Shown here: positions 7,820 through 34,367 of the stretch, in pieces | Numbering within the stretch: position 1 is the first letter of the stretch | How the letters are laid out: the number at the start of each line of letters is the position of its first letter | Source of the DNA: Candidatus Hydrogenedens sp. | GTDB lineage: Bacteria > Hydrogenedentota > Hydrogenedentia > Hydrogenedentales > Hydrogenedentaceae | Direction: 5' to 3' | Assembly: GCA_049968235.1 (NCBI GenBank) | Contig: JBMFRC010000011.1 | Location: 1 to 64,000 of the forward strand | Length of the DNA stretch: 64,000 nucleotides | Notes under the pieces: generated by a model | What the model saw: only the letters and a program-made list of their open reading frames with translations | Told to the model about the DNA's origin: nothing | Database searches by the model: none | Program-made: the position numbers and the translations under genes

Positions 7820-7826
7820 AGTTTTG

Positions 7827-7888: not shown

Positions 7889-8815
7889 ATGCACAGAAAA
7901 GGTTTTACACTCATTGAACTGCTTGTCGTAATTGCCATTATTGGTATTCTTGCGGCAATATTGTTACCTGCTCTTGCTCGTGCCCGTGAGGCGGCTCGCC
8001 GTTCCAGTTGCCAGAATAATTTGAAACAGTGGGGATTGGTCTTTAAAATGTATTCCAATGAATCTAAAGGTGAAAGGTTTCCAAGATTATGTGCTTATTA
8101 CGGAAACCTGGTAAACTGTGATGTAGCTGGATTTCCTGTAACTCATACCAACACTCTAAGGATTGCTGTGGGTCCTTATGTACCTTCGATATTTCCTGAA
8201 TATTTAACAGACCCCAATATTACGCTATGTCCTTCGGATGCAGAAGCCAAACCTGGAGATTTAACAAATCCGATAACGAATCAATCGGAATTCTACCTTG
8301 CGTGCAATAATATGGAAAGAGGTATGTTCCGTATTGACACAAGTTATGCCTACTTAGGCTATGTATTAGACCGGTGTGAAGATACGGATGAACAAATGAA
8401 TTTAGGTATGTTCGACCCTGAGTACTCTGCTTATAATGGTCCTGCCCAATTTGTAATGCTTGCAGCACAGTTATATGCAGCAGCAGAACCTGAGATTCCG
8501 GCAAAAACAGACCAGGATATTACTGTCGGGACACCTTATGGTAATGCAGGTAGTGCAACAGTATATCGGCTTCGTGAAGGAATTGAACGATTTCTTATAA
8601 CGGATATTAATAATCCTGCAGCAACAGCACAGGCACAAAGCAGTGTGTACATTATGTTTGACCTCGTTGCAACAGCGACTCAGGGGTTTAACCATGTCCC
8701 CGGTGGTTGCAATGTGCTGTATATGGATGGGCATGTGGAATTTGTTCGCTATCCGGGTAAAGCACCTGTAAATCAAGGAATTGCCTGGGTCACAACTGCG
8801 GTTGGATTTTCGTAA
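7889..8815 (+). CDS. Prepilin-type N-terminal cleavage/methylation domain protein of the DUF1559 (H-X9-DG) family, copy 1.
   Basis: The N-terminus ([43 protein letters not shown]) is a classic type IV pilin-like methylation motif plus hydrophobic helix. The C-terminal [12 protein letters not shown] is the H-X9-DG signature region. Confidence 0.9.
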
Positions 8816-10361: not shown

Positions 10362-13300
10362 TTATTTGCGTAAGCATGCCCTCTTGCGTATAACCGTCAT
10401 TACTCCAATAATCGAGGATATAAGAATCATTACAAGCAATCCTGTGCTTGTAGTTGCAGGAATGCCTTTTTCTACTTCCAGTGTAGCAATCGTAGATGTA
10501 ATCGTGTCGTTCTGTCCAGTTACAGAACTACCGCTATCCTGGACCACAACATAATATTGCCCTGAATCTTCATGTTGAGCTGGGTCAATTACCAGTAGAG
10601 GACCTATTGCACCGGGAATAACTTCCCATGCTTTTCCACCGACATTTCGATACCAGGTATAGGTCTTATCACCTAATCCACCGTTCACCTGAACAAACAT
10701 TTCCACCCGTTCACCCGAAGTGGCTCTATATTCAGGCAATAGGTCTTGAATGAAAGATAAATGCAATCCTACTTCTATATTTGCTTTACGAGATTGATAT
10801 AACATTGGAATATCATCTGTTACTTCAAGATAATATTTGTATGTTCCAACTGTCAACGAAGCAGTGTTAACCAATATCTCAAGGGTATTGCCAGCCACCA
10901 CTTCTGTTCCACCTCCGGGTAGGTCGCGTTTCCATTCATAATAGACAGGTGGTAACCCACCTACGAAGTCAGCTGTCAACCAGAATGATGGGTCATTAAT
11001 ATACAATGATTCATCTTCTGGTTGTAATGTAAATATGACTTCACTACTGGCTACACGGAGTAGTACGGGGTCAGATGTAAGTGTGGTATTCAAACCTGTA
11101 ACTGTAGAGGGTTGGTCAGAGATATATACCAGGTATTGATTTCCGTCATAGGTTACATCTACATTGGATAGGAGCAAAGTATTATTATTTACGCCTAACG
11201 AACCCATCCCGATTTGCCACCAATCATAATTATATGGTTCAAATCCACCTACTACTTCTACCTGGAATATTGCATCCTGCCCAGCATACAGATTTAAACT
11301 CTGCGGTTGCGTTACTATTTGTGGTGGGTCAGCCACCTTCACATTAGCAGTCCTCGATGTTACAGGCGGGTTCAATCCACCACTGGAATCGCTTACTATT
11401 ACATAGTAATCGCCCTCATCGGTAGCATCAGCAGAGCCTAAATCAAGCACATTATGCCCTTCTTCAGGACCCAATATACTTTCAGTGCCTTTGAACCATT
11501 CATAGTAGAATGGTGGTTGGCCACCCGTTACATTAGTAATTAATTGCACTGGTGATTCACCTGTATATGCGCGCACATCAGCAGGTCCCTGAACATTGAT
11601 AAAGTTTGTTATTGACAATTTAGCAATGCGAGATGTACCACTTTGCGGTGTGCCACTATCCGTTACCACACAACGATAATACGAATTTTGTAATCCAGAT
11701 AGATGCGCACCTTCCGCAATTTGTATTGTTAAAGTTGATTCATCTGCACCCGATACAATTGAACTTGCATGTAACGGATGCGGTCCATTTGTCAATGTTG
11801 TCCATGGACCACCCTGGTCGGTTGCATATTGCCATTCATAATTTATTGTTGGTATTCCACCTGTCCTTTGAACTGCAAATTGTGCTTGATTGCCCACATT
11901 CTCGATTACATCTGCAGGATGTTCTGTGTCAACTACAAGATTTTCATACACATTTAACACGCCTGCATTTGCTGGATATGCATCCGGATCCGGTCCACTA
12001 TCAACTGCTATACAACGATATGTACCTGTATCACCTACAACAGTGCCATTTATTGTAAACACGGAATTACTAGCACCGCTAACTATTGAAACTCGACCGC
12101 CTAAGTCGCCATCATTTAATGTTACATATCCACTTCCTGTATCCCTTTGCCATGTAAATGTATATGGAGTGGTTCCACCGGAAGCGGTTACAGTTACACT
12201 GTAATTTGAACCCTCATATTGGTTCACCGGACTTGGCGTCGGGTCAGTAATCACAAATGGATTTGTTATCAAAAGTGTAGCATTTTGAGAATCTTCTGTG
12301 GATGGAGCTCCACGATTTTCAGAGTCTGTTACGCGACACTTATATTGACCGGCATCAATTAGACCTAAATTCGATATTGTCAAAGTTGATGTAGAACCTA
12401 CATTGTTTATAGATACTATCGCACCGGAACCTGATGGATGTGGTCCATCCACCAATGGGGTTGTATCATTCCATAACCATTCATAAGTATATGGGGCATA
12501 ACCTCCAGAAATTGTAACACTGAATTGTGCAGAGCCTCCTGTATTCCGATGAATACTTTGCGGTTGTGCGGATATTGCCACTACAGGTTGAACATCTAAA
12601 CTTGAAGGTCCGGCGAATACGGTTTGTCCGCCATCTGAAATGTTGATTGCGGTACCATAGTAATTACCAATCATAGTCTGGTCGAGATTGGGAATATTCA
12701 CAGGATTGGAACCTGAGCCTACAGGAGTTAAACTTCCGCTTCTATCTATATACCACTGATATAAGTAATTGGAACCTGAACCACCGATAAATTTGAAACT
12801 ATAGATAACATTCTCACCAATATATTTTCTTACTGGTGTTGTCAGGTCTACCACAGTTCGCATTACATTGGTATTGATTGTGATAGTTTTTGTTCCTGAA
12901 ATTACCTGATTGGGTGGAGGAGGCGTATCGTTCGGGTCAGTAACAACACAACGATATTGACCATCTTCCTGACCGGGGATAGCATACTCTACGGTCAATT
13001 GATTAGTTGTCGCACCACTTATAACTGTTATTATAGGAGTATTATTGGGACCATCTGAGCCATTCACATTTCTTGGATAACTACCATTAGAAATATTTAC
13101 CCAGGAACCACCTTTAAATATCTGCCATTGATATTGATACGGCGGACCATATCCACCACTGGCGTTAACGGTCATCCGGAATGAACGCCCAAAACCGATG
13201 TATCCATCTGTTAAATTGTTTGCAGTTGGACTGCTAAAATCATCTTCACTAAATGGTGAATCTCTCGGTGGGTCAAACTCTTGTATTGCTATATTACTCA

Positions 13301-15095
13301 CGGCAAGTGGGTTAGGCCAGACATCAATATAATTTGTCTTTGTTTCTGTATCTTCTCCATATTGAGTAACAACTCTTAACCGAACAGTATAAACACCTAC
13401 AGAATTGTATGTCCATTGGGGATTTGTAGGTGTTGTGTAATGAGCATCATCATTACCATCACCATTGAAATCCCAATACCAGTCGGTTATCTGAGTAGTA
13501 TTTTCCGGTAACTGGTCTGGAATAGATGAATCTGTAAATGTAACAGTCAAAGGATATTGTCCCTGGGTAGGTGCTGCTGAAAAATCTGCTGTTGGTGGAG
13601 TATGCACTACAATATAATTTGTTTTTGTCTCATTGTCATTTCCTTCGGCTGTTTGAACAGTCAGAGATACTGTATATCTACCTGCAGTATTATACTGATG
13701 ACTCGGATTCTGCTGATTACTTGTTCCACTATCACCGAAGTTCCATGCCCATGTTGTTTCTGCCCACAAGCCAAAAGTATCCGATGAATCAGTAAACTGA
13801 ACGGATTGTCCTGCTAATATCTCCACAGGTGTCGCAGAGAAATCTGCTACAGGTGTCGCTACATTTTCATACGCTCCCATATCTACAGCAGAGCCATTTT
13901 TCCTCTGGAAATTACGAATATCAACTCGCCCGGGTGCTAGAGGTGGTTGAACAAGACCATCAGCCCCTGTATCTAAACATGGGGATATTGGTGATGGGAA
14001 AGTAACTGTCAAACGAAAATCATTATTCCCTGGATTCCGGAATAATGGGTCCGAATTAATATTTCCAGTTCCTACATGTCCTCCCTGTACATCAGAATAC
14101 TGTACATCTGCATTTACATATCCAAGGCCGGGTCTAAAGGTTCTAATATGAGGATTTGACGGTACAGGATTATTCCACAATATAGTGTTATAAATTTTTG
14201 GGAAATTAACTCCACATCCACTATTCATTATAGTATTAGCATTATATAATTGAGGATTAGACAAATTAGCCGAAGTGTTATTATAAAAGGTACAATTAGT
14301 AATATATGTCTCATTTCCTATTTCTACATTTGAGGAATTGATTCCATTGTTAAAAATTCCAGCACCGCCACGAATCGGGGAAACGCCGGTATCTACTGTT
14401 TCATTGCACGTATTGCCACGGAAGACGCAATCATGGATTAATGCACTTGCCTTGTAAATATTAGAACCAACAGTCCCGGACATGTTTGCAATCGCACCAC
14501 CTGCTGTTGCAGAAACATTATCGTAGAAAACACAATTACCTATCACTGGTGCTGATAACCAGTTATATATGCCTGCGCCACGCCAGGTATGGTAATCTCC
14601 TGCAACGCCCGAAGCACGACCACCACGTATGTGGAAGCCATCAATTACTACATCCGTATTGGGACCACTTCCCTTTCCTATGACGATTACATGATATGCA
14701 TTCGTGCCACCTCTTGAAGTTCTTCCATCAATAGTCGTTACATATTGTGAAGGTCTTCTCTGGTCTCGAGAAGTCTCTGTTCCCTTAAATCCACCATAAA
14801 GATGGACATTATCTTCCATAACCAATGAGCCATCCACCAAAGCAGGTGCACCCCAAGTTGCTGTTCTTAGTTCATCGTAATTCCCCTGAGCCACCCAAAC
14901 CTCCACAGGATTTCCAGGAGATGCTTGTGCATTAGCAGTGTCAATTCCTTCCTGAATTGTGCGAAATGCTTTAGCCCATGAACTACCATCCGGGGATGGG
15001 TCTGTGCTTGCTTTATTCACATATACTACTGCAAAAGCGTAGTTTGTCAGCAAGCATAAAACCAATAAAGACCACTTTAACTTGCTTTTCATCAT
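10362..15095 (-). CDS. Giant (~1577 aa) secreted adhesin-like protein. It has an N-terminal right-handed beta-helix region, two PKD domains, then more than 8 Ig-like domains with the G-x-Y-(R/K)-C-x-V-(T/S)-D motif. The C-terminus looks like a sorting signal: IPATTSTG, then a TM helix, then a basic tail.
   Basis: Signal peptide MMKSKLKWSLLVLCLLTNYAFA, with an AGGAGA Shine-Dalgarno sequence before the internal ATG. Beta-helix-type repeats (GNCVFYDNVSATAGGAI, HDCVFRGNTC, NCTFYNNTSA). PKD motifs (WNFGDSG...SHQYNTAGRYTVSLTV; WYWDFNGDGNDDAHYT...YNSVGVYTVRLRV). Recurrent Ig-like motifs (GQYRCVVTD, GQYKCRVTD, GTYRCIAVD, YYRCVVTD). C-terminus is GIPATTSTGLLVMILISSIIGVMTVIRKRACLRK. Confidence 0.8.
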   Translation of the reverse strand: MMKSKLKWSLLVLCLLTNYAFAVVYVNKASTDPSPDGSSWAKAFRTIQEGIDTANAQASPGNPVEVWVAQGNYDELRTATWGAPALVDGSLVMEDNVHLYGGFKGTETSRDQRRPSQYVTTIDGRTSRGGTNAYHVIVIGKGSGPNTDVVIDGFHIRGGRASGVAGDYHTWRGAGIYNWLSAPVIGNCVFYDNVSATAGGAIANMSGTVGSNIYKASALIHDCVFRGNTCNETVDTGVSPIRGGAGIFNNGINSSNVEIGNETYITNCTFYNNTSANLSNPQLYNANTIMNSGCGVNFPKIYNTILWNNPVPSNPHIRTFRPGLGYVNADVQYSDVQGGHVGTGNINSDPLFRNPGNNDFRLTVTFPSPISPCLDTGADGLVQPPLAPGRVDIRNFQRKNGSAVDMGAYENVATPVADFSATPVEILAGQSVQFTDSSDTFGLWAETTWAWNFGDSGTSNQQNPSHQYNTAGRYTVSLTVQTAEGNDNETKTNYIVVHTPPTADFSAAPTQGQYPLTVTFTDSSIPDQLPENTTQITDWYWDFNGDGNDDAHYTTPTNPQWTYNSVGVYTVRLRVVTQYGEDTETKTNYIDVWPNPLAVSNIAIQEFDPPRDSPFSEDDFSSPTANNLTDGYIGFGRSFRMTVNASGGYGPPYQYQWQIFKGGSWVNISNGSYPRNVNGSDGPNNTPIITVISGATTNQLTVEYAIPGQEDGQYRCVVTDPNDTPPPPNQVISGTKTITINTNVMRTVVDLTTPVRKYIGENVIYSFKFIGGSGSNYLYQWYIDRSGSLTPVGSGSNPVNIPNLDQTMIGNYYGTAINISDGGQTVFAGPSSLDVQPVVAISAQPQSIHRNTGGSAQFSVTISGGYAPYTYEWLWNDTTPLVDGPHPSGSGAIVSINNVGSTSTLTISNLGLIDAGQYKCRVTDSENRGAPSTEDSQNATLLITNPFVITDPTPSPVNQYEGSNYSVTVTASGGTTPYTFTWQRDTGSGYVTLNDGDLGGRVSIVSGASNSVFTINGTVVGDTGTYRCIAVDSGPDPDAYPANAGVLNVYENLVVDTEHPADVIENVGNQAQFAVQRTGGIPTINYEWQYATDQGGPWTTLTNGPHPLHASSIVSGADESTLTIQIAEGAHLSGLQNSYYRCVVTDSGTPQSGTSRIAKLSITNFINVQGPADVRAYTGESPVQLITNVTGGQPPFYYEWFKGTESILGPEEGHNVLDLGSADATDEGDYYVIVSDSSGGLNPPVTSRTANVKVADPPQIVTQPQSLNLYAGQDAIFQVEVVGGFEPYNYDWWQIGMGSLGVNNNTLLLSNVDVTYDGNQYLVYISDQPSTVTGLNTTLTSDPVLLRVASSEVIFTLQPEDESLYINDPSFWLTADFVGGLPPVYYEWKRDLPGGGTEVVAGNTLEILVNTASLTVGTYKYYLEVTDDIPMLYQSRKANIEVGLHLSFIQDLLPEYRATSGERVEMFVQVNGGLGDKTYTWYRNVGGKAWEVIPGAIGPLLVIDPAQHEDSGQYYVVVQDSGSSVTGQNDTITSTIATLEVEKGIPATTSTGLLVMILISSIIGVMTVIRKRACLRK

Positions 15096-15249
15096 ATACT
15101 GTCTCCTCATAGTGTTTTTATTATAGATTAAAACGCATTTATTAGTTATTTCACTTTTCTTTACATTTTAATGATAATTTTTTATCTTGTCTAAATTATA
15201 ACATGTAAAGCAATAAAAATCAAGAATATTTAATACTATATTTATATAA

Positions 15250-15285
15250 ATATAGTGGGCTGAAAATTATTCAACCCACTATATT
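15250..15285 (-). terminator. Putative intrinsic terminator hairpin downstream of the LRR/InlB-repeat giant gene.
   Basis: Inverted repeat AATATAGTGGG(C)TG ... CA(A)CCCACTATATT of about 12 bp, followed on the minus strand by an AU-rich tract. Confidence 0.4.
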
Positions 15286-15305
15286 ATCTTTATCAAGAAG
15301 ATTCA

Positions 15306-18300
15306 TTATGGTTGAGTACCGGGACAATAACCATCTTCACTACCTTCACACGGGTAATAACCACCGGAATTGAAGAATTGTATTAGACGGAGCAATTCAC
15401 TCAAAGATATTACCCAATCTTGTGGATTATAGTCAGAAGCATGTGGGTTACAGGAATGGTCGCCGGGTCCGGGAGCATATCCATCTTCACCCTGTGGGTC
15501 GCAGTGATATTCATTAAAGTTGAAGAACTGAATAACACGCAATAGTTCCGTTAAATTAATCTTTCCATCTCCATTCTGGTCAGCATTGTGAGGAGGTATT
15601 TCTCCTTCTGGAGTCCCTTCTGGAGTCCCTTCTGGAGTCCCTTCTGGAGTTCCTTCTGGTGTCCCTTCTCCTTCAGGTGGAATTTGAATAAAGATAACAC
15701 CGATTGTTCTGTTCCTGTCCATAGGAACCGTGATTTCAGGTTGCTCAATATTCGCAATTCCTTCTGTATCACCTGTCCATGCACCGAACATCCAGCCGTT
15801 AGCAGGCTGAGCAATAACAGTCTGAGTTTGACCCTCCAGAAATAGATATTCGTTACCTGGAAGTGGAGATGTAGTTCCCTGTCCTTCAACGACATTCAGC
15901 AGTAATTTATAATATACCTGCGGAGCAAATTTCGCTACTAATTGCATGTCTTCACTCAAAACTGTACCAAAAATAGGATTTGATGTAATTAGTGTGTTAC
16001 CGGAATACCACCCTTTGAATACCTGACCTTCACCGGGAACTGCTGTTAATTGAAGCGGGAAATTATTTGATAGTAGATATACATCTGCTAATAAAATTTC
16101 TTCTTCGCCTATAAATACAGTTCCATCGCCTTCTATCTGGAAATCAAATTTCCTACCTTCATTGTCAAAATGCGCTATCATATCATAATGTCCGTTAACA
16201 GTAACTGTTGCGGAATACCAATAAACCCAAGTTGTCTCGGGATTATTATTAGGGTTCTTTATCAATTCCCATCCACCGAAATAATCTTCGGTTTCCGCAT
16301 ATAAACTTAATTGTTTGCCATTAATATAGCAATACGCTCCTGGTCTTGGGGATGTTTCTCCGGTTCCGTTTCCGGCAGTAGTAATGTTCACATTCCAATC
16401 ACAAGGTTCAAATACCGCTATAATCGATAGGCTTTCCTGAACTTGAAGTATTAACACATCATCTGTGCTTATAATTTCATTATCATCAGTTATCCAGTGT
16501 TTTAACGCCCATCCTGAATCAGGATATGCTATATAGTATATCCATTCTCCACCTATATATCCGTAGATACCAGGGACGGGATTTGTTGTTCCATTACCCT
16601 GTGTACTTAACTCTATTGTATATACAGCATCTACGAAACGGGCTACAAGATTACGGTCAGAAGTTACCTGGAAAGAATAAAATGGCCATTCATTTACTAA
16701 TTCGTTGTTTTCATACCAACCCGCAAATGCTTTTCCTGAATCAGGAATGGCTGTAAAGAATGCCCATTGTCCATCAAAGTAGTAATAATTTCCCGGTACT
16801 GGGTTAGTGGTTCCTGGTCCGTCCACAGATATTACTACGGTATAGTCCGTCTCTCTGAAATTTGCAGTTATTACTTTATTTGCATTCATCACAACCTGTA
16901 TAGGATTATCTTGTGGATTTGCTCCTCCTATATCACCACTCCAACCATTAAATACCCAACCCTCCTCAGGATTTGCTGTAATAAGAACAACCTGACCTTC
17001 TGTCTTCTGATATATACCTGGGACGGGGTCAGTCGTTCCTGAACCATTTACATTTATAGTTAAAGTATAGGTTGGTACAGATGTAAAAACGGCACGAATC
17101 GTCATATCTTCTGTTATTTCTACATTTATAGGATTATCTGTTCCTAAATTATTACTATTACCATCTTCCCAATGGTCAAACAGATAACCTGCATCTGGAA
17201 ATGCTGAAATGCTAACGAACGAACCCTGAGCATATTGATATGTCCCTTGATATGGAGATGTAAACCCGTTCCCTATTACTTCTATTTTTAATTGATAGCA
17301 TTGATTGGAGAATATAGCACCAACTGTCTTGTCACTATCCATTACTATATTAGCAAAAGGAGAAGAGCCGAAAGACTGGGCATCTTCTGTCCATCCTCCA
17401 AAGCATGAACCTGTATCCGGTAATGCATATAAATATACCCATTGATTATCTTTAAATGAATAATTACCATTTCCATCATAGAATGGGATAATGGTACCTG
17501 TACCTGTGTTGGATGGGTCAAATGCAAATGTTAATGTATATGTGCCAGGGACAAAAACAGCCTTCACTAAAATATTTTCCTGAACATTATCAAAGAGATA
17601 ACTATAACTATCTGTTAAAAATACATATCCTGCTTTTGCGTTCTCATCCCAAATTTCCCAGTGGTCAAAAGCATAGCCACTATCTGCTTGAGGATATGCT
17701 AAAATAATAAAATCACTATTGATTTCGACTGTATTTACTCCTACTTGAGGTAAAACCTTTCCAATACCTTCCACTTCAATGGTTACGGTTACCTCACATA
17801 CTCCTTCACGAGTTACTACACCACTAGGTTTCACTTTTTGAACCAGTTGGTCGACTAAATAACAAAGTTCCGTAGGAACGGGATTGTACCTAAGGTCAAT
17901 ATAGTCACCATCACCAATTCCTTCGTTGTCTAACAGAAACCCAAAATTCTCTATGTTATTATTGTCCAGATAAACATATTTTAATGCGGTATAGTTTTTT
18001 AAAGGACTTATATCAGAAACCACGTTATTACTTAGATTTAACATTTCTAGAGTTCCTACAGGAGATCCTGAATTGCTTAACCCATATATATTGTTAATTT
18101 GATTCATTGACGCATCTAATGCTACAAGATTAGGCATCATTTCTATACCGGAAAGATTGGTTAATGAATTATCACTTACATTCAACCCTATCAAAGAATT
18201 AAAGGTAAATGGATCTTTTACTGTGAACAATGAAGGACCAATATTATTCCCAGGCAAATTTGCAATCGTTAAACCGTTTAATCCTACAAGACTGTTGATA

Positions 18301-19268
18301 TTTGTAATACCTGTATAGGCACAAAACAACAAATATAAATTACTCCAATTTTGAACAACACCTATATCATTAATGCCAAGCCCTACTAAGAATGCAAAAC
18401 GGGGATTTAACCCGCTAAGATTTGAAAGATCTGTTATATTTTCTTCAGCTAAACCTAATAATCCTGGGTTATCCTCATCTACATAAGTTATATTTGTCAT
18501 GTTGGCTACATAAGTATCCAATTCTGTTTGTCCCAACCCACAATTAGCGGATAAAAATGAATTCAAGTTCTGGTCTACATTTCCCAGAGGGGACCAATCC
18601 GTAATTGGATTACTTCCTAACCATAACTGAGTTAGATTATTCAGATTGTTTAGAAAACTTATATTTGTAACATTCTCCAATCCCCCTATACTTAGTATTT
18701 CTAAATTTACTAAAGAATTTAATACAGCAAGGTCAGCGTCATCAAGATTATTCGCTCCCGTAACAAATGGGTCAAATTCATCATATAAAAATACCGTACC
18801 AAATCCTAAATTTAATCCTACTAAATTTGTTAATGTCGATAAGGCTGAGATATCCGAAATCTGGTTCATTCCTATATCTAAATACTGTAGTCCTGTAAGT
18901 CCTGACAAACTTGAAATATCTGTTATCTGATTCTTTCCTAATAACAAATATATTAAATTCGTTAAACTACTTAATGGTGATACATTTGTTATTTCATTCG
19001 AAACAAGATTTAATACGGTTAAAGAAGTACACGCCTCTAAACCTGTTAAATCGGTAATCCCAAGGTAGGAGGCATCCAATTTAGTAAAATCAGGGTTTGC
19101 TAATTCGGTATCTTGTGGAGGGTTACTCAAAGGGCTTCCGACCTGGTCTTCATATTGTATCTGAACTGCTGACAACAGATTCGGGTCATTAAATATTACA
19201 TCTGCCGAAAAAACATTCAGAGAAAACAGTGCAAAAGCCATCACAACGACTAAAGATTGGATTTTCAT
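15306..19268 (-). CDS. Giant (1320 aa) secreted protein. It has N-terminal internalin-like leucine-rich repeats, about 9 divergent InlB B-repeat-like domains, a PEGTPEG linker and a conserved Cys-containing dockerin/EF-hand-like C-terminal module.
   Basis: Signal peptide MKIQSLVVVMAFALFSLNVFSA, with AAGGAGATG as Shine-Dalgarno. LRRs read LTVLNLVSNEITNVSPLSSLTNLIYLLLGKNQITDISSLSGLTGLQYLDIGMNQISDISAL. Repeated modules follow the pattern Y(T/K)L.I.V.G.GTT.P.PG.Y....G..V.L.A.P..G..F.GWSGD. C-terminal region is PEGEGTPEGTPEGTPEGTPEGTPEGEIPPHNADQNGDGKINLTELLRVIQFFN...YHCD...EDGYAPG...CNPHASDYNPQDWVISLSELLRLIQFFNSGGYYPCEGSEDGYCPG. Confidence 0.85.
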   Translation of the reverse strand: MKIQSLVVVMAFALFSLNVFSADVIFNDPNLLSAVQIQYEDQVGSPLSNPPQDTELANPDFTKLDASYLGITDLTGLEACTSLTVLNLVSNEITNVSPLSSLTNLIYLLLGKNQITDISSLSGLTGLQYLDIGMNQISDISALSTLTNLVGLNLGFGTVFLYDEFDPFVTGANNLDDADLAVLNSLVNLEILSIGGLENVTNISFLNNLNNLTQLWLGSNPITDWSPLGNVDQNLNSFLSANCGLGQTELDTYVANMTNITYVDEDNPGLLGLAEENITDLSNLSGLNPRFAFLVGLGINDIGVVQNWSNLYLLFCAYTGITNINSLVGLNGLTIANLPGNNIGPSLFTVKDPFTFNSLIGLNVSDNSLTNLSGIEMMPNLVALDASMNQINNIYGLSNSGSPVGTLEMLNLSNNVVSDISPLKNYTALKYVYLDNNNIENFGFLLDNEGIGDGDYIDLRYNPVPTELCYLVDQLVQKVKPSGVVTREGVCEVTVTIEVEGIGKVLPQVGVNTVEINSDFIILAYPQADSGYAFDHWEIWDENAKAGYVFLTDSYSYLFDNVQENILVKAVFVPGTYTLTFAFDPSNTGTGTIIPFYDGNGNYSFKDNQWVYLYALPDTGSCFGGWTEDAQSFGSSPFANIVMDSDKTVGAIFSNQCYQLKIEVIGNGFTSPYQGTYQYAQGSFVSISAFPDAGYLFDHWEDGNSNNLGTDNPINVEITEDMTIRAVFTSVPTYTLTINVNGSGTTDPVPGIYQKTEGQVVLITANPEEGWVFNGWSGDIGGANPQDNPIQVVMNANKVITANFRETDYTVVISVDGPGTTNPVPGNYYYFDGQWAFFTAIPDSGKAFAGWYENNELVNEWPFYSFQVTSDRNLVARFVDAVYTIELSTQGNGTTNPVPGIYGYIGGEWIYYIAYPDSGWALKHWITDDNEIISTDDVLILQVQESLSIIAVFEPCDWNVNITTAGNGTGETSPRPGAYCYINGKQLSLYAETEDYFGGWELIKNPNNNPETTWVYWYSATVTVNGHYDMIAHFDNEGRKFDFQIEGDGTVFIGEEEILLADVYLLSNNFPLQLTAVPGEGQVFKGWYSGNTLITSNPIFGTVLSEDMQLVAKFAPQVYYKLLLNVVEGQGTTSPLPGNEYLFLEGQTQTVIAQPANGWMFGAWTGDTEGIANIEQPEITVPMDRNRTIGVIFIQIPPEGEGTPEGTPEGTPEGTPEGTPEGEIPPHNADQNGDGKINLTELLRVIQFFNFNEYHCDPQGEDGYAPGPGDHSCNPHASDYNPQDWVISLSELLRLIQFFNSGGYYPCEGSEDGYCPGTQP
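15603..15672. repeat. In-frame 12-nt tandem repeat (CCTTCTGGAGTC, about 5.5 copies) encoding the PEGTPEG linker.
   Basis: tccttctggagtcccttctggagtcccttctggagtcccttctggagttccttctggtgtcccttctcc read directly. It is coding, not CRISPR-like, because there are no unique spacers. Confidence 0.7.
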
Positions 19269-26509: not shown

Positions 26510-27094
26510 ATGAATCGTGAACAAAAAGCGTTTACAACATTTGAAGCGGCAAGGATATGTCATGTAACCCACCATAGTATAAAGAATTGGATTCGTCAGG
26601 GTCTGATAAAAGCATCGCGAACACCTGGAGGACATTATCGTATTCTTGAAAAAGACCTGGATGAATTTAGAGAAAAGTATGATATGTTTCCAAGGGACAA
26701 AAACGCCAAAAAGTATCGTATTATGGTGGTTGATGATGACCCCGACGCGATAAATCTTATTGAGAACATGTTGGGTAAAGATGAGTATGAAATTATAAAA
26801 GTAAATAACGCTACAGAAGTTGGCTTAAAAGCAATCCAATTATCTCCCGACCTTATATTGCTTGATTTCTTAATGCCAGAAATCAATGGTTTTGAAGTAT
26901 GCCGTGCATTAAGGAGTAACGATATGACTCGTTTTATTCCGATTATGGCGGTAACATGCTTAACTAAAGATTCTGACATTGAACGGATATTCGCTTGTGG
27001 TGCGGATGAATATCTTGCAAAGCCTTTTAAAGTTGACCAATTATTGGAAAAAGTTAAAGAGTTGGTTACTAAAGGTCGACCCGTCCAAAAATAA
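26510..27094 (+). CDS. Response regulator with an N-terminal excisionase/MerR-type HTH (HTH_17-like) and a C-terminal receiver (REC) domain.
   Basis: HTH reads TTFEAARICHVTHHSIKNWIRQGLIKASRTPGGHYRI. REC reads RIMVVDDDPDAI...LILLDFLMPEINGFEVCRALR...IMAVT...LAKPF. A strong AAGGAGG Shine-Dalgarno sequence lies upstream. Confidence 0.85.
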   Translation: MNREQKAFTTFEAARICHVTHHSIKNWIRQGLIKASRTPGGHYRILEKDLDEFREKYDMFPRDKNAKKYRIMVVDDDPDAINLIENMLGKDEYEIIKVNNATEVGLKAIQLSPDLILLDFLMPEINGFEVCRALRSNDMTRFIPIMAVTCLTKDSDIERIFACGADEYLAKPFKVDQLLEKVKELVTKGRPVQK

Positions 27095-27158: not shown

Positions 27159-30100
27159 ATGGAACAAAAGCAAAAATATCGCACAAGTATTGAACGAAAA
27201 TTTTTCATAGCGATATTTTGGGTTGGCATAATTCCCATGACGCTAACCTTGATTGTGGCTTATGTTTTTGCCAGAGAAGGACAGTGGATAACCACAAAAA
27301 GGAATTTGACCACTGCGGTAAAAATTACAACTGAAGGGGTAAGGCTCTCTTTATCTACTCGTTTAAGTTATTCTGCACGGATTGCCACAGAACCTATTTT
27401 TTCTCAATTCTTCCATGCACCTAAGGAAGAACAAGAACTTTTAATAAAGCAAATCTCTGAGAAACTATTCTCTATTCAATCCTATAGCGAAGGAAAATCA
27501 TTCGCATTCGCAATTGTTGATAAAGAAAATAACTTACTCTTTTCAACTCCGTCATTTAAAGCAGGAGATTTGCTTACTTCCAATTGGCAAAAAAAAATAA
27601 AATACCCATATATCGTTGCCATATCCACACCTCCTCAGGCGGAGAGATATTCTTTAACTGTAGCCATTCCTATAAAAGATAAAAATGATGAGATATTGGG
27701 ATTTCTTCTTGAGGTACAGGAAGCCTCTGAACTGATTCGTTTTGCTTTAGGACAGACATTTGTAGATTCTCCCCAAAAAGAGAACATCTATTATATGATT
27801 GTTTACATGAGAAATAGTGATGGTATATCTGTTTATTATGATGATAAAGGAGATGGAACAAAAGCAAATATAAATTATGAAATTACTGATTCACGATTCA
27901 CACAAAGATTAAAGAGAATATCCAATAAATCGGAGGGGTTATTAACACTACTACGATTTTCCAGTCGAGGGAAAGTTGCACCTGTTTTATTAGCATATGA
28001 AAAGATTTATCCGGAATACGATATATATTTCTGTGCCTATAAACATCTTAATGAAATTTTTTGGTTTATTCATATTGGTTCTGTTGTATCATTAATTATT
28101 GCGGGTCTGGTTATACTTTTCTTCTCATTGATAGGTTATCGTATTATTCATAAAAATATATTACAACCTTTAAGTTTGATTAACGAAGGGGCACAAATAA
28201 TCCGACAGGGGGATTTGGAACTTAAATTAAAGATTCAAACTGGGGATGAGTTAGAAGAAGTTGCTATTTCTTTTAATGAAATGGCAAGTGCTTTGCGAAA
28301 AAACATCTATGAATTAGAATCTTCCGAAGAACGGTATCGTAATCTTGTGAATTCCATGAGAGATGGGATATATCAGACAAATAAAGAAGGAGTATTAACA
28401 TTAATTAATCCTTTTGGTGCAAGAATATTAGGTTTTGATGAACCTGATAGTGCTATAGGAACACGAATTGAGAATTTGTTTTTAAACACAAATGATTACA
28501 AAACATTCTGTTCTGAATTAGAAAAAAATAATTATTTGAACCAATTCCGCGTATGGATAAAACCCATTCGAGGTGAATTGATTTGTGTAGAAATATCCGC
28601 AGGCTATTTAAAAGATGAAAAATCGAATATTATAGGTATCGAAGGTATTTTCCGTGATATTACACAAAATGTCTTACTGGAAAAGGAAGTCCATGAACGA
28701 GCGGAAAGATTACGAGCAGTAAATATTATTGCGAGGACGATAAATTCCAGTCTGGAAGCGGGTAAAGTTTATGAAAGTATTGTCAATGAAATAAAAAGGT
28801 TAGTTTATAACATTGATTATGCAGTGGTTGCTTTCCCTCCGGAAAAACAGGGGCATCCGCAATGCTATGAAGAGGATTCTTGTTTTGAAATCTTAACGCT
28901 TCTACCCAATTCCAATACCAAACCTATAATAGGACATTTCTGTTGTGGGGAAAAAGTAATAAAAGAGAAAAAGACCCTTGTCTTTGATTATTTACAATCT
29001 GAAGAAGAAACCATAGCTAAAGAATTTCCATCGGACATTGTAAGTCTTATTGTAACGCCATTATTCGCAGAAGATACTGTGATTGGAGTTTTAGTGTTGG
29101 GTTCCAAAATTCCCAAAGCATTTCTACCCCATGACATTGAAATTGTAGAAGAGGTATCCACACACATTGCAGTTGCCATTCGCAATGCCCGGTTACTAGA
29201 GAAACTTCAGAATACACTTGATGAAATCAATAAAGCTAGAGAACAATTAAATAAAGCAAATGAAGAATTAAAAACTCTCGATGAAATGAAGACGAATCTT
29301 CTTTCCAATGTTTCTCATGAATTGCGAACACCTCTGGTATCAGTAATGGGATATACCGATATGATTTTGAAAGGGAAAACAGGACCTATCACAGATACAC
29401 AAAGGGAATATCTCTCCATCAGTCTCAGAAATGTTGAAAAGTTAGTAAACTTAATAGAAAACCTTCTGGATTTTTCTAAACTTCATAAAGGGAAAGAAGA
29501 ACTTGTATTTAGCACTTTTGATATTGTTGAATGTGCAGAAAGCGGGCTACAGAACATTCGCCCTATGGCAGAACCCCGAAAAATACAATTAATTTTAAAT
29601 GCAGAACAAAGACCGATACTGGTAGATGGTGATAAAGGAAAAATAATTCAAGTTTTTAATAATTTATTGTCCAATGCTGTAAAATTTAATAAAAATGAAG
29701 GGTCTGTAGAAGTCAGGATAAAAATAATAGACGAAGAAGTAGAAGTTTCAGTTGTAGATACAGGGATTGGAATTCCTCCCGAATCTATAGATAAAATTTT
29801 TACCCGATTTTATCAGGTAGATTCCTCATCTACGCGGAAATATGGAGGAACGGGAATAGGACTTTCTATTTCTCAGGATATTATGCGTCTTCACGGGAGT
29901 CGAATTATATTATCAAGTAGTCCGGGGCAGGGAAGCACATTTTCATTTCGACTTCCTCTTCATGGGACACACCCTGAAGATAGTCATATTTATGCTCGTC
30001 ACATTACACCCGATGAAACTCACTTACTGGTAGAATTAGTTACTCAAGATAGGTCAATGAGTGCCCAGATTCGCAATTGGTTATTAGAGGAAAATATAGA

Positions 30101-30770
30101 TATCCTTCACGCAGGGCATCCATCAACAGCCATATCGTTGGCATTAAAGTATAATCCTGATTGTATCATTATTGATTGTGATGAAGGACCTATGGCAGAG
30201 GTTATGGTAAGTGAAATTTTAGAAAGTCCTGGGATTGTTGAAATACCCATTATCCTCATAACAGAACAAGAACAATTATATACTACTTATTCGGACAAAA
30301 TTATCCATCGTTTACCTAAACAATTAAGAAAAAGTATTCTTTTAAGTGCCATTCGATATGCTATACGGACTTTACCTATAGAAGCATCTGAATTAGGGAA
30401 TTCAATACTATGTGTTGATGATGATTTAGAAGTTCTTCAATTCATAAGAAATTGCCTTGAAAATGAAGGTTATAATGTTGAGGTAGTCACATCAGGAGAG
30501 GAATGTATTGAGAAAGCACAAACAGGTCAATTCCGCCTTATTTTATTAGATATTGCTATGCCCGGACTGGACGGTCTTGAAGTATGCCGGACAATAAGAA
30601 CAAATCCAAAATTAAAAGGGATATATATCCATATTGTTACAGCCAAACCTATAACCGATATAATAAAGAGAACTTATGAGGTTGAAGCGGATGGTATTTT
30701 ACAAAAACCATTTAAACAAGAGGATTTATTAACTATTGTAAAAAATTACATTCCTCCGGAAAAAAAATAA
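27159..30770 (+). CDS. Hybrid sensor histidine kinase (1203 aa). It has a TM sensor domain, HAMP, PAS, GAF, HisKA, HATPase, then two receiver-like domains.
   Basis: N-terminal TM (FFIAIFWVGIIPMTLTLIVAYVF) and a second TM (FWFIHIGSVVSLIIAGLVILFF). PAS-like SEERYRNLVNSMRDGIYQTNKEG. H-box LSNVSHELRTPL. G-boxes VVDTGIGIP and GGTGIGLSISQ. C-terminal REC reads ILCVDDDLEVLQF...LILLDIAMPGLDG...LQKPF. Confidence 0.9.
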   Translation: MEQKQKYRTSIERKFFIAIFWVGIIPMTLTLIVAYVFAREGQWITTKRNLTTAVKITTEGVRLSLSTRLSYSARIATEPIFSQFFHAPKEEQELLIKQISEKLFSIQSYSEGKSFAFAIVDKENNLLFSTPSFKAGDLLTSNWQKKIKYPYIVAISTPPQAERYSLTVAIPIKDKNDEILGFLLEVQEASELIRFALGQTFVDSPQKENIYYMIVYMRNSDGISVYYDDKGDGTKANINYEITDSRFTQRLKRISNKSEGLLTLLRFSSRGKVAPVLLAYEKIYPEYDIYFCAYKHLNEIFWFIHIGSVVSLIIAGLVILFFSLIGYRIIHKNILQPLSLINEGAQIIRQGDLELKLKIQTGDELEEVAISFNEMASALRKNIYELESSEERYRNLVNSMRDGIYQTNKEGVLTLINPFGARILGFDEPDSAIGTRIENLFLNTNDYKTFCSELEKNNYLNQFRVWIKPIRGELICVEISAGYLKDEKSNIIGIEGIFRDITQNVLLEKEVHERAERLRAVNIIARTINSSLEAGKVYESIVNEIKRLVYNIDYAVVAFPPEKQGHPQCYEEDSCFEILTLLPNSNTKPIIGHFCCGEKVIKEKKTLVFDYLQSEEETIAKEFPSDIVSLIVTPLFAEDTVIGVLVLGSKIPKAFLPHDIEIVEEVSTHIAVAIRNARLLEKLQNTLDEINKAREQLNKANEELKTLDEMKTNLLSNVSHELRTPLVSVMGYTDMILKGKTGPITDTQREYLSISLRNVEKLVNLIENLLDFSKLHKGKEELVFSTFDIVECAESGLQNIRPMAEPRKIQLILNAEQRPILVDGDKGKIIQVFNNLLSNAVKFNKNEGSVEVRIKIIDEEVEVSVVDTGIGIPPESIDKIFTRFYQVDSSSTRKYGGTGIGLSISQDIMRLHGSRIILSSSPGQGSTFSFRLPLHGTHPEDSHIYARHITPDETHLLVELVTQDRSMSAQIRNWLLEENIDILHAGHPSTAISLALKYNPDCIIIDCDEGPMAEVMVSEILESPGIVEIPIILITEQEQLYTTYSDKIIHRLPKQLRKSILLSAIRYAIRTLPIEASELGNSILCVDDDLEVLQFIRNCLENEGYNVEVVTSGEECIEKAQTGQFRLILLDIAMPGLDGLEVCRTIRTNPKLKGIYIHIVTAKPITDIIKRTYEVEADGILQKPFKQEDLLTIVKNYIPPEKK

Positions 30771-30775
30771 TAGTA

Positions 30776-31843
30776 CTACTCCATGTAAGAATCGAAAAAG
30801 CGATATGAGGGTTCAATTTCCCTATCACGAGTTCGTTCTGTATCCAATATGGGGTTAAATAAAACTTGTATAGGTCCTTCCAGTTTCCCTTCTAACCATC
30901 TTGCTAATAGTTCTAAACCTTCTGATGCCGATTCACGAACAGGTAACCAAACATGGGCTGAAGCCTCATGAAGAACGTAGCCTTTACTTTCATAGGTCCA
31001 TGTTAGAACTTCACAGTCTTTTTCGATGGTTCTTCCTGCTCTTTTAAATCCCTCCCGAATGGCTTCACCATTTTCTGTTCCGCTACTATCAATTAATGCA
31101 GTAATGTTAGAGTCCGATAGAAGTTGATGGATTCGTAGTGCAACATTTCTTGCACCAAAGTTTACATGTTTTATATTTCTTTCAGAGAAAGGCAGGTTTG
31201 CCTCTTCCAGTGCTTTCTTGTAACCTCGAATTCTTTCTACACCGGGTTGATATTCATGAAAAGCCTGCAATAAAGCGATATGTTTATGCCCTTTATCTAT
31301 TAAGAATTTTGTACTTATATAAGATGCTTTTTCATAGTCAACTGTGGCATAGGATAAATCTGGAAACGATTCCAATCTACCAAAGGCTATATAAGGAATG
31401 CCTGAGGTATGAATTCTTTTTGCAATCACATCAGACAATGAAAAAGGACCTGCAATAATACATGACTTAAAAAGATTATCGAAAACACCTCGGGCATAAT
31501 TTTCTATTTTTCCCAGTTCATAAGGGGACATATCAAAGCAAATATACTCCCCCTTTTTCCCAAATATTCGATATAACTCCATAAAAAGCCATAGAAAAAA
31601 GTTGGGGCTAAAAGGGACAATCTCTATGGGTGCAGGAAAAGTAACTCCAACACATGCAGGTTGATTGGCTCTCAATGAACGAGCAAAAATATTGGGATAG
31701 TAACCTAATTTTTCAACTATTTCAAGGACTTTTTTCCGAGTTTCTTCTTTGACGCCGTCTTTAAAATTAATAACCTTACTTACTGTTTTTGCAGATACAC
31801 CCGCCATTTTTGCGATGTCATAAATGGTTATCTTCTCGAACAT
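30776..31843 (-). CDS. LacI-family transcriptional regulator.
   Basis: N-terminal HTH reads ITIYDIAKMAGVSAKTVSKVINFKDGVKEETRKKVLEIVEKLGYYPNIFARSLR, followed by a periplasmic-binding-protein-like effector domain. A GGGAG Shine-Dalgarno sequence lies upstream. Confidence 0.9.
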   Translation of the reverse strand: MFEKITIYDIAKMAGVSAKTVSKVINFKDGVKEETRKKVLEIVEKLGYYPNIFARSLRANQPACVGVTFPAPIEIVPFSPNFFLWLFMELYRIFGKKGEYICFDMSPYELGKIENYARGVFDNLFKSCIIAGPFSLSDVIAKRIHTSGIPYIAFGRLESFPDLSYATVDYEKASYISTKFLIDKGHKHIALLQAFHEYQPGVERIRGYKKALEEANLPFSERNIKHVNFGARNVALRIHQLLSDSNITALIDSSGTENGEAIREGFKRAGRTIEKDCEVLTWTYESKGYVLHEASAHVWLPVRESASEGLELLARWLEGKLEGPIQVLFNPILDTERTRDREIEPSYRFFDSYME

Positions 31844-31952
31844 AGGAAACTCCCTTTTAGTAATCGTTTACTATAATTATAGCAAAAAATTTTTTTGTTT
31901 TCATTTATTTTTTGATTAATTTTATATTAATAGAGAAAAAATAAAAATTAAT

Positions 31953-31981
31953 TTGATATTTGTAAACATATAATATATAAT
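31953..31981 (+). promoter_or_regulatory. Near-consensus sigma70 promoter (TTGATA-N17-TATAAT) upstream of DUF1559 gene copy 2. It is divergent from the LacI-family gene.
   Basis: TTGATA at 31953-31958, a 17-nt spacer containing TGTAAAC, and TATAAT at 31976-31981. Confidence 0.5.
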
Positions 31982-31992
31982 ATAGGTATAAA

Positions 31993-32023
31993 GTAAACGA
32001 TTACTTCAATGGGCGAAGTAATC
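31993..32023 (+). promoter_or_regulatory. LacI-type operator-like near-palindrome GTAAACGATTAC (31993-32004). It overlaps a perfect 9-bp stem hairpin (GATTACTTC-AATGGGC-GAAGTAATC, 31999-32023) in the 5' UTR.
   Basis: The half-sites GTAAAC/GTAATC flank a central CG, typical of LacI/GalR operators. The motif is essentially identical, as a reverse complement, to the one downstream of the copy-1 promoter (7827-7839). The hairpin arms are read directly from the sequence. Confidence 0.35.
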
Positions 32024-32061
32024 AAAAAAGGTTTATTAACAAAAATATAAGGAGTAATCCT

Positions 32062-33045
32062 ATGAAGAAAAAAGGTTTCACACTCATCGAACTGCTGGTC
32101 GTTATTGCAATCATTGGCATCCTCGCTGCAATATTGTTACCAGCACTGGCACGGGCACGCGAAGCGGCAAGACGCTCCAGCTGCCAGAACAATTTAAAAC
32201 AATGGGGTCTCGTTTTCAAAATGTATTCTAACGAGGCGAAGGGAGAACGGTTTCCTCCCATTCAGGCAGGTGGTTATAAGAATGTAAATGGGCAACTTAA
32301 ACCTGTTTTAGATGCAGGACCCAATGTATTTGTTCTGTATCCGGAATATCTGACGGACCCCATGATTATCTTTTGTCCATCGGATGCAGAATTAGGTCAA
32401 TCTATTGCCAAAGCACATCTCAATGGGGATGTTAATCAAGATTGGTGTATTGGTTATGCGGATAGCAATGGTGGAAATTGTGCGCGTGCCATTGACGCGA
32501 GTTATGGCTATTTAGGTTGGGTTTTAGATAAAGGGAATTGTCCCCCGCAAGACCCCGTATCTACGCTTAGCAGTTTTACCTATTTAGGCACGATTGCGTC
32601 ATTCCTTGGTGTAACAATTGACATGAACACCGAAGTTTCTACACAAGTTGGTTCAGCACTGGATTATTTGGTTCAACAAATATTGCCATTATTGAGTGGA
32701 AGTAGTATTCCCAATGGAATTCTTCCCATAGCTGACAATGATATACCTGTTCCTAATGGTGTAGGAAACGGTGGTGGTTCTACTGTATATCGTCTTCGTG
32801 AAGGTATTGAACGTTTCTTGATCACAGACATTAACAATCCAGCAGCATCAGCACAAGCCCAAAGTTCCGTATGGATTATGTTTGACCAGTTATCAACCAA
32901 TCCTGCGGCATACAACCATATTCCCGGAGGTTCAAATGTGTTATACATGGATGGTCATGTGCAGTTCCAGAGATATGGTGAATGTGAACCTGCTCCTGTG
33001 AATAAGCCTATGGCAGTCCTTGTGGGTATTTTGACCTCCAATTAG
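32062..33045 (+). CDS. Prepilin-type N-terminal cleavage/methylation domain protein of the DUF1559 (H-X9-DG) family, copy 2. It is a paralog of 7889..8815.
   Basis: The first ~60 aa ([54 protein letters not shown]) are identical to copy 1, although the nucleotides diverge synonymously. The C-terminus ([34 protein letters not shown]...[11 protein letters not shown]) is conserved and the middle segment is divergent. Confidence 0.9.
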
Positions 33046-33074: not shown

Positions 33075-33112
33075 AGCGTCGGTATCTAATGGATATCGAC
33101 GCTAATTTTTTT
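33075..33112. terminator. Bidirectional intrinsic terminator between convergent genes (DUF1559 copy 2 and an oxidoreductase).
   Basis: Stem AGCGTCG...CGACGCT (7 bp perfect, extendable to about 11 with one mismatch). It is preceded by AAAAAA and followed by TTTTTTT. Confidence 0.7.
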
Positions 33113-33125: not shown

Positions 33126-34367
33126 TTAATTTTCAGGGTATATATCAGGATAACTTGAATTATAATTAATAGAATAGACTCGCCCTTTTTCAGATATGGA
33201 CAACCTTCCTGCTTCATTTATTAACTCATTATAAAATGAATTTTTAGGTGTGGCAATAATACCGAGATTATCTATTCTTTCCATTTCTTCTAACTGTTTC
33301 TGCTCATCATCACTACTATCAATTTTCTTCACACAATGCACTAATTCCTCTATTGAAGTATAGCCATATCCAACAGGTTTTAATCCGGGACCGTTCCACG
33401 GCACTAATCGGAAGTAATCCGTATTGATAGTAAAAAACTTTTTCTTAGGTTCTATCAGTTCTTCTCTAATACTGTAACTTACACCACGGAATTGGTCATC
33501 GTGTTTCAAGGTTGTTGTGCAATTTTCATTTTCAAAGTATAATTCCAATCCTTGCTGGTTACTACCGCCTCCCATGTCGGGATAACCCAGACCATTGATA
33601 ACAGATAGGATACCGCCATTTTCATAAATTACTCTACCATGTGACCACAAATAACCTATATTACCATTAGGGAATGGCTTTCTAATACCAACCACAGAAA
33701 CAGATACCGGTTTTAGCCCTGTAATAAAAGCAACAAGGTCAACATAATGACAGCCAACATAAGTAAAAGGGTCGGAAATATCACAGGTAAACCAATTTTG
33801 AAAATTACTGTGGCGATAGTAGTAAGGCTCAATCATCTTTGCCTCACCAATGACAAATTTGCCAAATAATCCATTTTGATAATTCTTTCGTGCCAAAAGG
33901 GAACGAATATCAAACCGTTTATGGTATTCGACCCCCACAAAAAGTCTTTTTTCCTTTGATATTTTTTTAATCTCCACAAGTTGCTTATATGTCTGAACAA
34001 GGGGCTTAACGCAAATTACATGCTGTTCATGAGCAAGTGCTTCCATAATAGCGGGATAATGCAAGTGGTCTGGCAAGGCAACAAAAACACATTGACGGGG
34101 TGGTAGATTTTTTATTGCCTCTTTGTATAAATCCGGGTAATATTCATTTTCGGGTGTATTCAGAGGAGGGAAAGGTATAAATGTTTGTTCGGGGAAAGCC
34201 TCCTTAATAAATGGGCTTTCCTGTAAAAATTTTAAGGGTGTGGTATGTCGGGCACAAATAGATATTTTTCCTATTTCCCCTAGTCTTTGTAATTGATATA
34301 GACTTGGGAGAATCTGGTCATGGACAATCATTCCTCCACCTAATATAAGAATATCTTTTCCCGACAT
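33126..34367 (-). CDS. Gfo/Idh/MocA-like NAD(P)-dependent oxidoreductase with an extended C-terminal domain.
   Basis: N-terminal Rossmann region ILILGGGMIVHDQILPSL. The family motif around VALPDHLHYPAIMEALAHEQHVICVKPL resembles the EKPL consensus. Confidence 0.55.
   Translation of the reverse strand: MSGKDILILGGGMIVHDQILPSLYQLQRLGEIGKISICARHTTPLKFLQESPFIKEAFPEQTFIPFPPLNTPENEYYPDLYKEAIKNLPPRQCVFVALPDHLHYPAIMEALAHEQHVICVKPLVQTYKQLVEIKKISKEKRLFVGVEYHKRFDIRSLLARKNYQNGLFGKFVIGEAKMIEPYYYRHSNFQNWFTCDISDPFTYVGCHYVDLVAFITGLKPVSVSVVGIRKPFPNGNIGYLWSHGRVIYENGGILSVINGLGYPDMGGGSNQQGLELYFENENCTTTLKHDDQFRGVSYSIREELIEPKKKFFTINTDYFRLVPWNGPGLKPVGYGYTSIEELVHCVKKIDSSDDEQKQLEEMERIDNLGIIATPKNSFYNELINEAGRLSISEKGRVYSINYNSSYPDIYPEN

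Follow-up and report, generated by a model that had tools for sequence, protein, structure and literature searches.

We find that a LacI-family gene and a divergently transcribed gene encoding a prepilin-type DUF1559 protein very probably form a self-contained two-gene switch, in which the LacI/GalR protein would repress both the adjacent DUF1559 gene and its own gene through two operators. The pair lies in the window, the whole stretch of 64,000 nucleotides that was analysed (GC about 35%; 34–35%). That the adjacent LacI-family protein represses the DUF1559 gene locally had been proposed in the initial annotation, and this reading is strongly supported, as the gene pair, the promoter hexamers and the position of the operator are kept in 17 loci. 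The cassette, composed of a LacI-type repressor gene and a divergent DUF1559 gene, usually with an operator after each promoter, is kept across the uncultured phylum Hydrogenedentota. It occurs in syntenic and non-syntenic neighbourhoods alike (17 loci with a DUF1559 neighbour among those fetched around LacI homologs, with LacI identities of 51–91% and GC contents from low to high). The description of the host as Planctomycetes-like does not hold: Candidatus Hydrogenedens sp. belongs to the Hydrogenedentota, and homologs of its LacI-family protein come almost all from Hydrogenedentes/Hydrogenedentota. Both DUF1559 proteins of the window share 100% identity with annotated proteins of a Candidatus Hydrogenedens sp. 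MAG.

A LacI-family regulator divergent from the DUF1559 gene

The regulator gene is divergent from the DUF1559 gene, as had been claimed, across an intergenic region of 218 bp; this is borne out by the position of the open reading frame and by the domain content of its product. The protein carries an HTH_LacI domain at residues 6–51 (PF00356, 66.1 bits versus a cut-off of 27; Pfam E = 2.3e-18) and an effector domain of the type I periplasmic-binding-protein-like kind (PF00532, Peripla_BP_1, 31.8 bits versus a cut-off of 22.2; PF13377, Peripla_BP_3, 32.2 bits versus a cut-off of 26.5). Along its whole length the protein aligns with CcpA structures (3oqm, E = 3e-30, residues 4–303). The hinge ‘NIFARSLR’ (core ‘ARSLR’) aligns with CcpA ‘NAVARGLA’ and places a leucine at the expected hinge position; A54 and R58 are the same in all of 30 homologs, and L57 in at least 90% of them.

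At E ≤ 1e-20 the protein has 242 homologs, and among the 120 of these that were listed, all named ones are Hydrogenedentes/Hydrogenedentota or unclassified, except one labelled Nitrospiraceae. Scores fall far under every NCBIfam equivalog cut-off, the best match being ccpA (TIGR01481) at 107.8 bits versus a cut-off of 442, and we therefore assign the protein to a separate, Hydrogenedentota-centred LacI subfamily.

Two further genes adjoin the LacI gene: 26510..27094, for a MerR-HTH/receiver protein, and 27159..30770, for a hybrid histidine kinase of 1203 aa that has HAMP, PAS and GAF domains, with 5 nt between the end of the kinase gene and the LacI stop. Six of seven close orthologs also have these two genes beside the LacI gene (L170 does not), and they are missing from every distant locus examined.

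Two near-identical predicted operators, one just downstream of each promoter

LacI/GalR dimers recognise even-spaced palindromes, with the hinge-helix leucine inserting at a central CpG, and repression is exerted from sites that overlap the transcription start or follow it directly, such as lac O1, which is centred at +11. The promoters and palindromes of the intergenic region are listed in Table 1. On the DUF1559 side, the TTGATA-N17-TATAAT promoter named in the initial annotation is upheld both by the sequence (−35 TTGATA at 31953–31958, a 17-nt spacer and −10 TATAAT at 31976–31981) and by conservation of the hexamers in relatives. In this AT-rich stretch promoter-like matches are not enriched (13 found in the window versus 11.7 expected), so that the promoter is supported by its conservation and not by its score. 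A near-palindrome with a central CG had been placed just after this promoter, and it is found there as GTAAACGATTAC at 31993–32004, its core starting 11 nt after the −10 element. With a transcription start some 7 nt past the −10, this operator would be centred near +11.

The count of operators required revision. The DUF1559-side operator stood, while a second full operator in front of the LacI gene, at 31860–31871, had been overlooked. Its 12-mer, GTAATCGTTTAC, is the reverse complement of GTAAACGATTAC, and each operator, read towards the gene that it precedes, gives AGTAAACGATTACT. In their longer versions, TAGTAATCGTTTACTA and AAGTAAACGATTACTT, both have the form of a LacI-type operator, an even-spaced palindrome of 14–20 bp with a central CG. 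The LacI gene has a weak −35 (ATGAAA, 31899–31904) and an extended −10 (TGCTATAAT, 31876–31884) with TG before the −10, together matching 10 of 12 consensus positions; on the minus strand its operator starts 4 nt after the −10 and ends 16 nt before the start codon. Because this second operator covers the LacI gene’s own promoter, autoregulation is probable.

A GTAAAC half-site had also been reported within the spacer of the DUF1559 promoter (TGTAAACATAT). The hexamer is present, but as a single hexamer that is conserved in no ortholog; as a candidate third operator it was rejected.

Table 1 Features of the LacI–DUF1559 cassette in the window.
Feature	Position	Strand	Details
LacI/GalR-family repressor gene	30776..31843	minus	355 aa; HTH_LacI and periplasmic-binding-protein-like effector domain
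Repressor-proximal operator (predicted), TAGTAATCGTTTACTA	31858..31873	unstranded	core 12-mer GTAATCGTTTAC at 31860–31871
Promoter-like site of the LacI gene	31876..31904	minus	−35 ATGAAA, 17-nt spacer, extended −10 TGCTATAAT
Sigma-70-type promoter of the DUF1559 gene, TTGATA-N17-TATAAT	31953..31981	plus	11/12 consensus positions
Target-proximal operator (predicted), AAGTAAACGATTACTT	31991..32006	unstranded	core 12-mer GTAAACGATTAC at 31993–32004
5′-UTR hairpin, GAUUACUUC / AAUGGGC / GAAGUAAUC	31999..32023	plus	5′ arm is the operator right half
Shine-Dalgarno sequence of the DUF1559 gene, AAGGAG	32049..32054	plus	ends 7 nt before ATG; AGGAG invariant in 8 orthologs
Prepilin-type DUF1559 / H-X9-DG protein gene, candidate regulated target	32062..33045	plus	327 aa
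Terminator-like hairpin (13 pairs), then T-run	33075..33103	plus	follows the DUF1559 gene

Operators are concentrated at the cassette

Exact matches to GTAAWCGWTTAC occur twice in the 64-kb window, both within the 218-bp intergenic region, where 0.01 would be expected; none of 100 shuffled windows contained two. Looser matches with up to two mismatches are not enriched in the window (11 versus 10.75 expected, none of them with exactly one mismatch). Related loci contain 30 sites that match at 11 or more of the 12 positions. Of these, 28 fall within the shared intergenic regions (6.2 kb; 15 loci), and both others, in the surrounding 129.5 kb, stand upstream of the second of two tandem DUF1559 genes in L003. 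The density of strong sites in the shared intergenic regions is thus about 230-fold that of the flanks, with operators co-inherited with the LacI gene. Position counts over 35 sites give the consensus RGTAAYCGRTTACY, in which the arms GTAA and TTAC hardly vary; at the two central positions, 31 of the 35 sites have C and 34 have G.

A scan for further sites had been suggested as a way to define the regulon. Over the window and 129.5 kb of related flanks, the motif proved to be concentrated at the cassette and no wider regulon was seen, so that the regulon looks like the cassette itself. A wider regulon within the window was dropped, with looser sites at chance level and no additional targets; given that the scan covered 64 kb of this genome, the regulon there could be larger than the cassette.

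This distribution bears on whether the palindromes might instead be cre-like sites of a global CcpA-type catabolite regulator encoded elsewhere, with the adjacent LacI gene as one target of many. The operator core GTAAnCGnTTAC is close to the Bacillus cre consensus, the closest solved homologs are CcpA proteins, and ccpA is also the best NCBIfam match. Yet the protein stays well below the ccpA equivalog cut-off, and the sites are local where those of CcpA are global: they are confined to the cassette, occurring nowhere else in the 64 kb and, in the flanks, only upstream of another DUF1559 gene, and they travel with the LacI gene into non-syntenic contexts. We regard a global regulator of this kind as highly improbable, and local repression by the adjacent protein as the preferred reading.

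The architecture is conserved in close orthologs

Eight syntenic loci were aligned (WIN, L001, L081, L083, L167, L168, L169 and L170; LacI identity 72–91%). The alignment consists of islands of conservation amid diverged AT-rich DNA, and these islands are both operators, both −10 boxes, the DUF1559 −35 (TTTGACA/TTGACA), the hairpin and the Shine-Dalgarno sequence. All 12 positions of the DUF1559-side operator are invariant in the eight orthologs, and the LacI-side operator is invariant except at one Y position. The spacer of the DUF1559 promoter diverges while its −35 and its −10 TATAAT stay conserved.

A short block, TTTnnnnAACnAA, in the DUF1559 leader between the hairpin and the Shine-Dalgarno sequence (32030–32046 in the window) is kept in all eight orthologs. 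The genes flanking the cassette vary by lineage with a leaning towards carbohydrate metabolism, and include Gfo/Idh/MocA oxidoreductases, GH4, DUF2961, xylose-isomerase-like TIM barrels, GH2 and fucosidase; this fits a carbohydrate-type inducer without identifying it.

Promoter and operator positions persist in distant relatives

In distant, GC-richer and non-syntenic loci (L002, L003, L005, L007, L012, L085, L087, L088 and L090; LacI identity 51–61%), the neighbour transcribed divergently from the LacI gene is once more a prepilin-type DUF1559 gene. A TTGAnA-N17/18-TAnnnT promoter is found in all 17 loci with a DUF1559 neighbour, and the operator core, GTAAYCGRTTAC, starts 7–13 nt after the −10 in 16 of the 17 and 28 nt after it in L002. 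In most distant loci a second operator precedes the LacI gene, and the LacI promoters of the distant GC-rich relatives are clear (TTGACA-N17-TAtAcT, 12–14 nt upstream of the LacI-side operator). Over the 19 loci tabulated, a site precedes the LacI gene in 16; L085 and L090 carry one site only, so that autoregulation is not universal.

These comparisons also weigh on the mode of action. The LacI-family protein might activate, or both activate and repress, or the two operators might act through a DNA loop, since some LacI/GalR members are known to loop DNA or to activate and the operators in the window lie 133 bp apart, centre to centre. Both sites, however, sit downstream of a −10, the position of a repressor. 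Across loci the operators are 108 to 184 bp apart, with scattered fractional turns that show no helical phasing, and in some loci there is just one site. On the spacing and the single-site loci, looping between the operators was rejected; unlike lac, the cassette gives no sign of looping or of auxiliary operators in phase. We consider activation or looping extremely unlikely, and repression remains the reading that we follow.

Upstream of the tandem second DUF1559 gene of L003 (1316..2266, minus strand), two additional GTAAYCGRTTAC sites stand at 2360 and 2505 (region 2267–2729), and the L003 repressor probably controls two pilin-like genes. In L002 (2764–4000), the LacI gene is separated from the intact DUF1559 gene by a degenerate DUF1559 copy that is interrupted by in-frame stops; the LacI-side operator is located upstream of this pseudogene, which points to duplication and loss within the cassette.

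Paralogous cassettes pair other helices with other palindromes

Palindromes in paralogous cassettes were found with a palindrome script. L008 and L091 (49–51% identity) have the same gene pair and promoter layout with the palindrome TTATCGATAA and the recognition helix ‘SANTVSR’, and L009 has the palindrome GACATCGATGTC and the helix ‘SGKTVSR’. Members of the GTAAYCG group mostly have the helix ‘SAKTVSK/R’; L090 is an exception, with the helix ‘STNTVSK’ and yet the operator GTAATCGGTTAC kept. Such pairing of helix and palindrome across paralogs is what would be expected if the adjacent protein reads the site, and we treat it as suggestive, the sample being small and L090 imperfect.

Within the window, the first DUF1559 paralog (7889..8815) is preceded at 7791–7842 by TTGACA-N17-TGtTATTAT and then TTGGTAATCGTTATACCAA, and has a sulfatase gene next (8841..10250) and no LacI gene beside it. 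Its site, at 7824–7842, has TGGTA/TACCA arms as in the LacI operator with one extra base between them (N7 versus N6). Looking up the exact sequence of this paralog returned no record. An 87% ortholog of this paralog (L171/L172) carries TGGTAATCGTTTTACCA with the same +1 spacing and a diverged promoter spacer. As a second target of the LacI-family protein the first paralog is unlikely, since the +1 spacing, conserved in the 87% ortholog, makes binding by the same dimer unlikely; its site may represent a separate operator class for another regulator. In a 68% relative of the first paralog (L173, 1040–1100), TTGACG-N17-TACGAT is followed by a different palindrome, TGAGA-N6-TCTCA. Judging by these sequences, DUF1559 genes seem to have individual operators closely following the −10.

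A hairpin in the DUF1559 leader overlaps the operator

The perfect 9-bp hairpin overlapping the operator, as described in the initial annotation, was recovered at 31999–32023, with DNA arms GATTACTTC (31999–32007) and GAAGTAATC (32015–32023) forming nine perfect pairs around a 7-nt loop. Over nine loci 98.6% of cells are paired, with five different loop sequences. The changes observed were one compensatory replacement of U-A by C-G (L168), four U-G/G-U wobbles and one mismatch, and each wobble change leaves the stem paired only on the strand of the DUF1559 mRNA. A binomial estimate that ignores relatedness gave P of about 0.005–0.02 for four of five single substitutions preserving pairing, and a shuffle control was not significant (143/500). 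For the predicted leader the folding energy is −15.9 kcal/mol (z = −4.4), and an Rfam search of it returned a chance match only (E = 0.84).

These properties could be taken to mean that control is mainly post-transcriptional, with the 5′-UTR stem-loop, and not a repressor at the overlapping palindrome, governing how stable the mRNA is or how it is translated, for instance by way of an RNA-binding protein or of alternative pairing with the Shine-Dalgarno region. The conservation of the hairpin in nine loci, with changes tolerated only in the mRNA sense, the binomial estimate and the folding score all favour this account, as does GGAGUAAUC at the Shine-Dalgarno region, which could pair with arm 1. 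Against it, the same palindrome recurs on the LacI side, where it lacks a hairpin partner, and distant relatives keep the operator but have no common hairpin, the right half of the operator sometimes pairing downstream (L005, L087, L088 and L090); the shuffle control and the Rfam search also count against it. A stem-loop can add to repression and cannot replace it, and we judge control by the stem-loop in place of the repressor to be very unlikely.

The alternative pairing was followed through the orthologs. The region at 32051–32059 reads GGAGTAATC, a third GTAATC copy, which could pair with hairpin arm 1 (GAUUACUUC) and so sequester the Shine-Dalgarno sequence. This copy is present in WIN, L001, L081 and L168 and lost in L167, L169, L170 and L002, and alternative pairing of arm 1 with GGAGUAAUC was dropped on account of these losses; the pattern of presence probably reflects shared ancestry. 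Alongside repression at the operator, the hairpin is a probable 5′ stem-loop of the DUF1559 mRNA, possibly stabilising and secondary to the operator, although the evidence for it is thin.

The probable target is a pilin-like protein of a highly expanded family

The DUF1559 gene looks monocistronic, since a terminator-like hairpin follows it and the next gene (33126..34367) is convergent. Its product matches PF07963 (N_methyl, 37.1 bits) and PF07596 (SBP_bac_10/DUF1559, 39.9 bits) and carries the H-X9-DG motif (TIGR04294, 23.8 bits versus a cut-off of 19). The protein seems to have a pilin fold, joined to a large globular part for which there is no match. A two-lobed periplasmic-binding or solute-binding fold was not detected in the protein, and the Pfam name ‘SBP_bac_10’ is thus unsupported by its fold. 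It resembles the DUF1559 proteins of Planctomycetota, Verrucomicrobiota and Lentisphaerota (PF07596, TIGR04294) in its N-terminal methylation motif, its conserved first ~60 residues and its C-terminal H-X9-DG motif. The massive paralogy of the family extends to this lineage, with at least 8000 database matches.

In the literature DUF1559 has no assigned function, although Planctomycetota and related phyla encode 68–74 copies per genome and two are essential in Planctopirus (PMC10632474, PMC2754498). Our search of the literature found no paper that links LacI-family regulators to DUF1559 or prepilin genes or that describes DUF1559 function. The 64-kb window contains no genes for pilus or type II secretion machinery.

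Elsewhere in the window, the minus strand has two very long ORFs (1582 and 1320 aa; 10362..19268) with Ig/PKD and LRR/InlB-B-repeat domains that probably encode surface proteins, and the presence of GH127, a sulfatase and an alginate-export-like porin suggests a polysaccharide-degrading lifestyle. A 1122-aa minus-strand ORF (54456..57824) has many weak matches to EF-hand repeats and lies near genes for Sigma-54 (58457..60031), an H+-pyrophosphatase (60109..62163) and RNase III (62257..62985).

Discussion

Because the ‘ARSLR’ hinge is conserved, the operators have a central CG and both sites lie just downstream of a −10, we infer repression of the DUF1559 gene together with negative autoregulation. 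The proposed mechanism, which takes in binding by the adjacent protein, repression over activation, the nature of the inducer, the transcription starts and the role of the hairpin, would run as follows. The LacI/GalR protein would bind, as a dimer, two near-identical palindromes of 14–16 bp with a central CG, one at about +11 of the DUF1559 promoter and the other overlapping the start of the repressor transcript. Bound repressor would block RNA polymerase at both promoters, and through this block the pilin-like gene would be kept off and the repressor would limit its own level. A small ligand, in the likeliest case a carbohydrate or a compound derived from one, would bind the C-terminal domain and release the repressor. 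The DUF1559 mRNA would begin with a stable stem-loop, its 5′ arm formed by the operator right half, that may stabilise the transcript. A sugar as inducer and a role for the DUF1559 protein in a pilus or in secretion are guesses.

In most respects the cassette resembles known LacI/GalR local repressors (E. coli LacI at lac O1, GalR, PurR and Bacillus CcpA). It shares with them the HTH_LacI domain, the hinge leucine and the periplasmic-binding-protein-like domain, an even-spaced 14–16 bp palindrome with a central CG, and a regulator gene that adjoins its target; the placement of the DUF1559-side operator recalls lac O1, and its core recalls Bacillus CcpA sites. It differs from them in its target, a single prepilin-type DUF1559 gene in place of a catabolic or transport operon. 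On this comparison the mechanism would be that of a textbook LacI-type local switch, and what is new is the target and the phylum-wide conservation of the cassette.

One possible parallel for a sugar-linked pilin comes from archaea, where the ‘bindosome’ sugar-binding proteins (Sulfolobus GlcS/AraS) carry type IV prepilin signal peptides. We draw on this likeness for an idea only, that of a pilin-type N-terminus on a sugar-linked surface protein. In contrast to the archaeal system, the DUF1559 protein has no detected solute-binding fold, no assembly genes lie nearby and the cassette includes no ABC transporter.

A further, rather doubtful extension is that paralogous LacI–DUF1559 cassettes have non-cross-reacting operators and that DUF1559 proteins are substrate-specific subunits, each induced by a particular carbohydrate and exchanged into a fibre like that of a pilus or of type II secretion, where they would serve to capture or secrete glycans. 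The operator classes would then be GTAAYCGRTTAC, TTATCGATAA, GACATCGATGTC and the +1-spaced TGGTA-N7-TACCA of the first paralog. Were this true, the DUF1559 expansions in Planctomycetota, Verrucomicrobiota and their relatives would amount to a repertoire of inducible, ligand-matched pilins.

The comparison also provides the first comparative evidence that we have found for a sigma-70-type promoter architecture (TTGACA-N17-TAnnnT) in Hydrogenedentota, and a small set of candidate repressor–operator pairs that may not cross-react. For DUF1559, among the largest paralogous families in Planctomycetota and related phyla, a dedicated and conserved ligand-sensing repressor offers a practical point of entry: should the releasing molecule be found, the condition under which the pilin-like protein is needed would become known.
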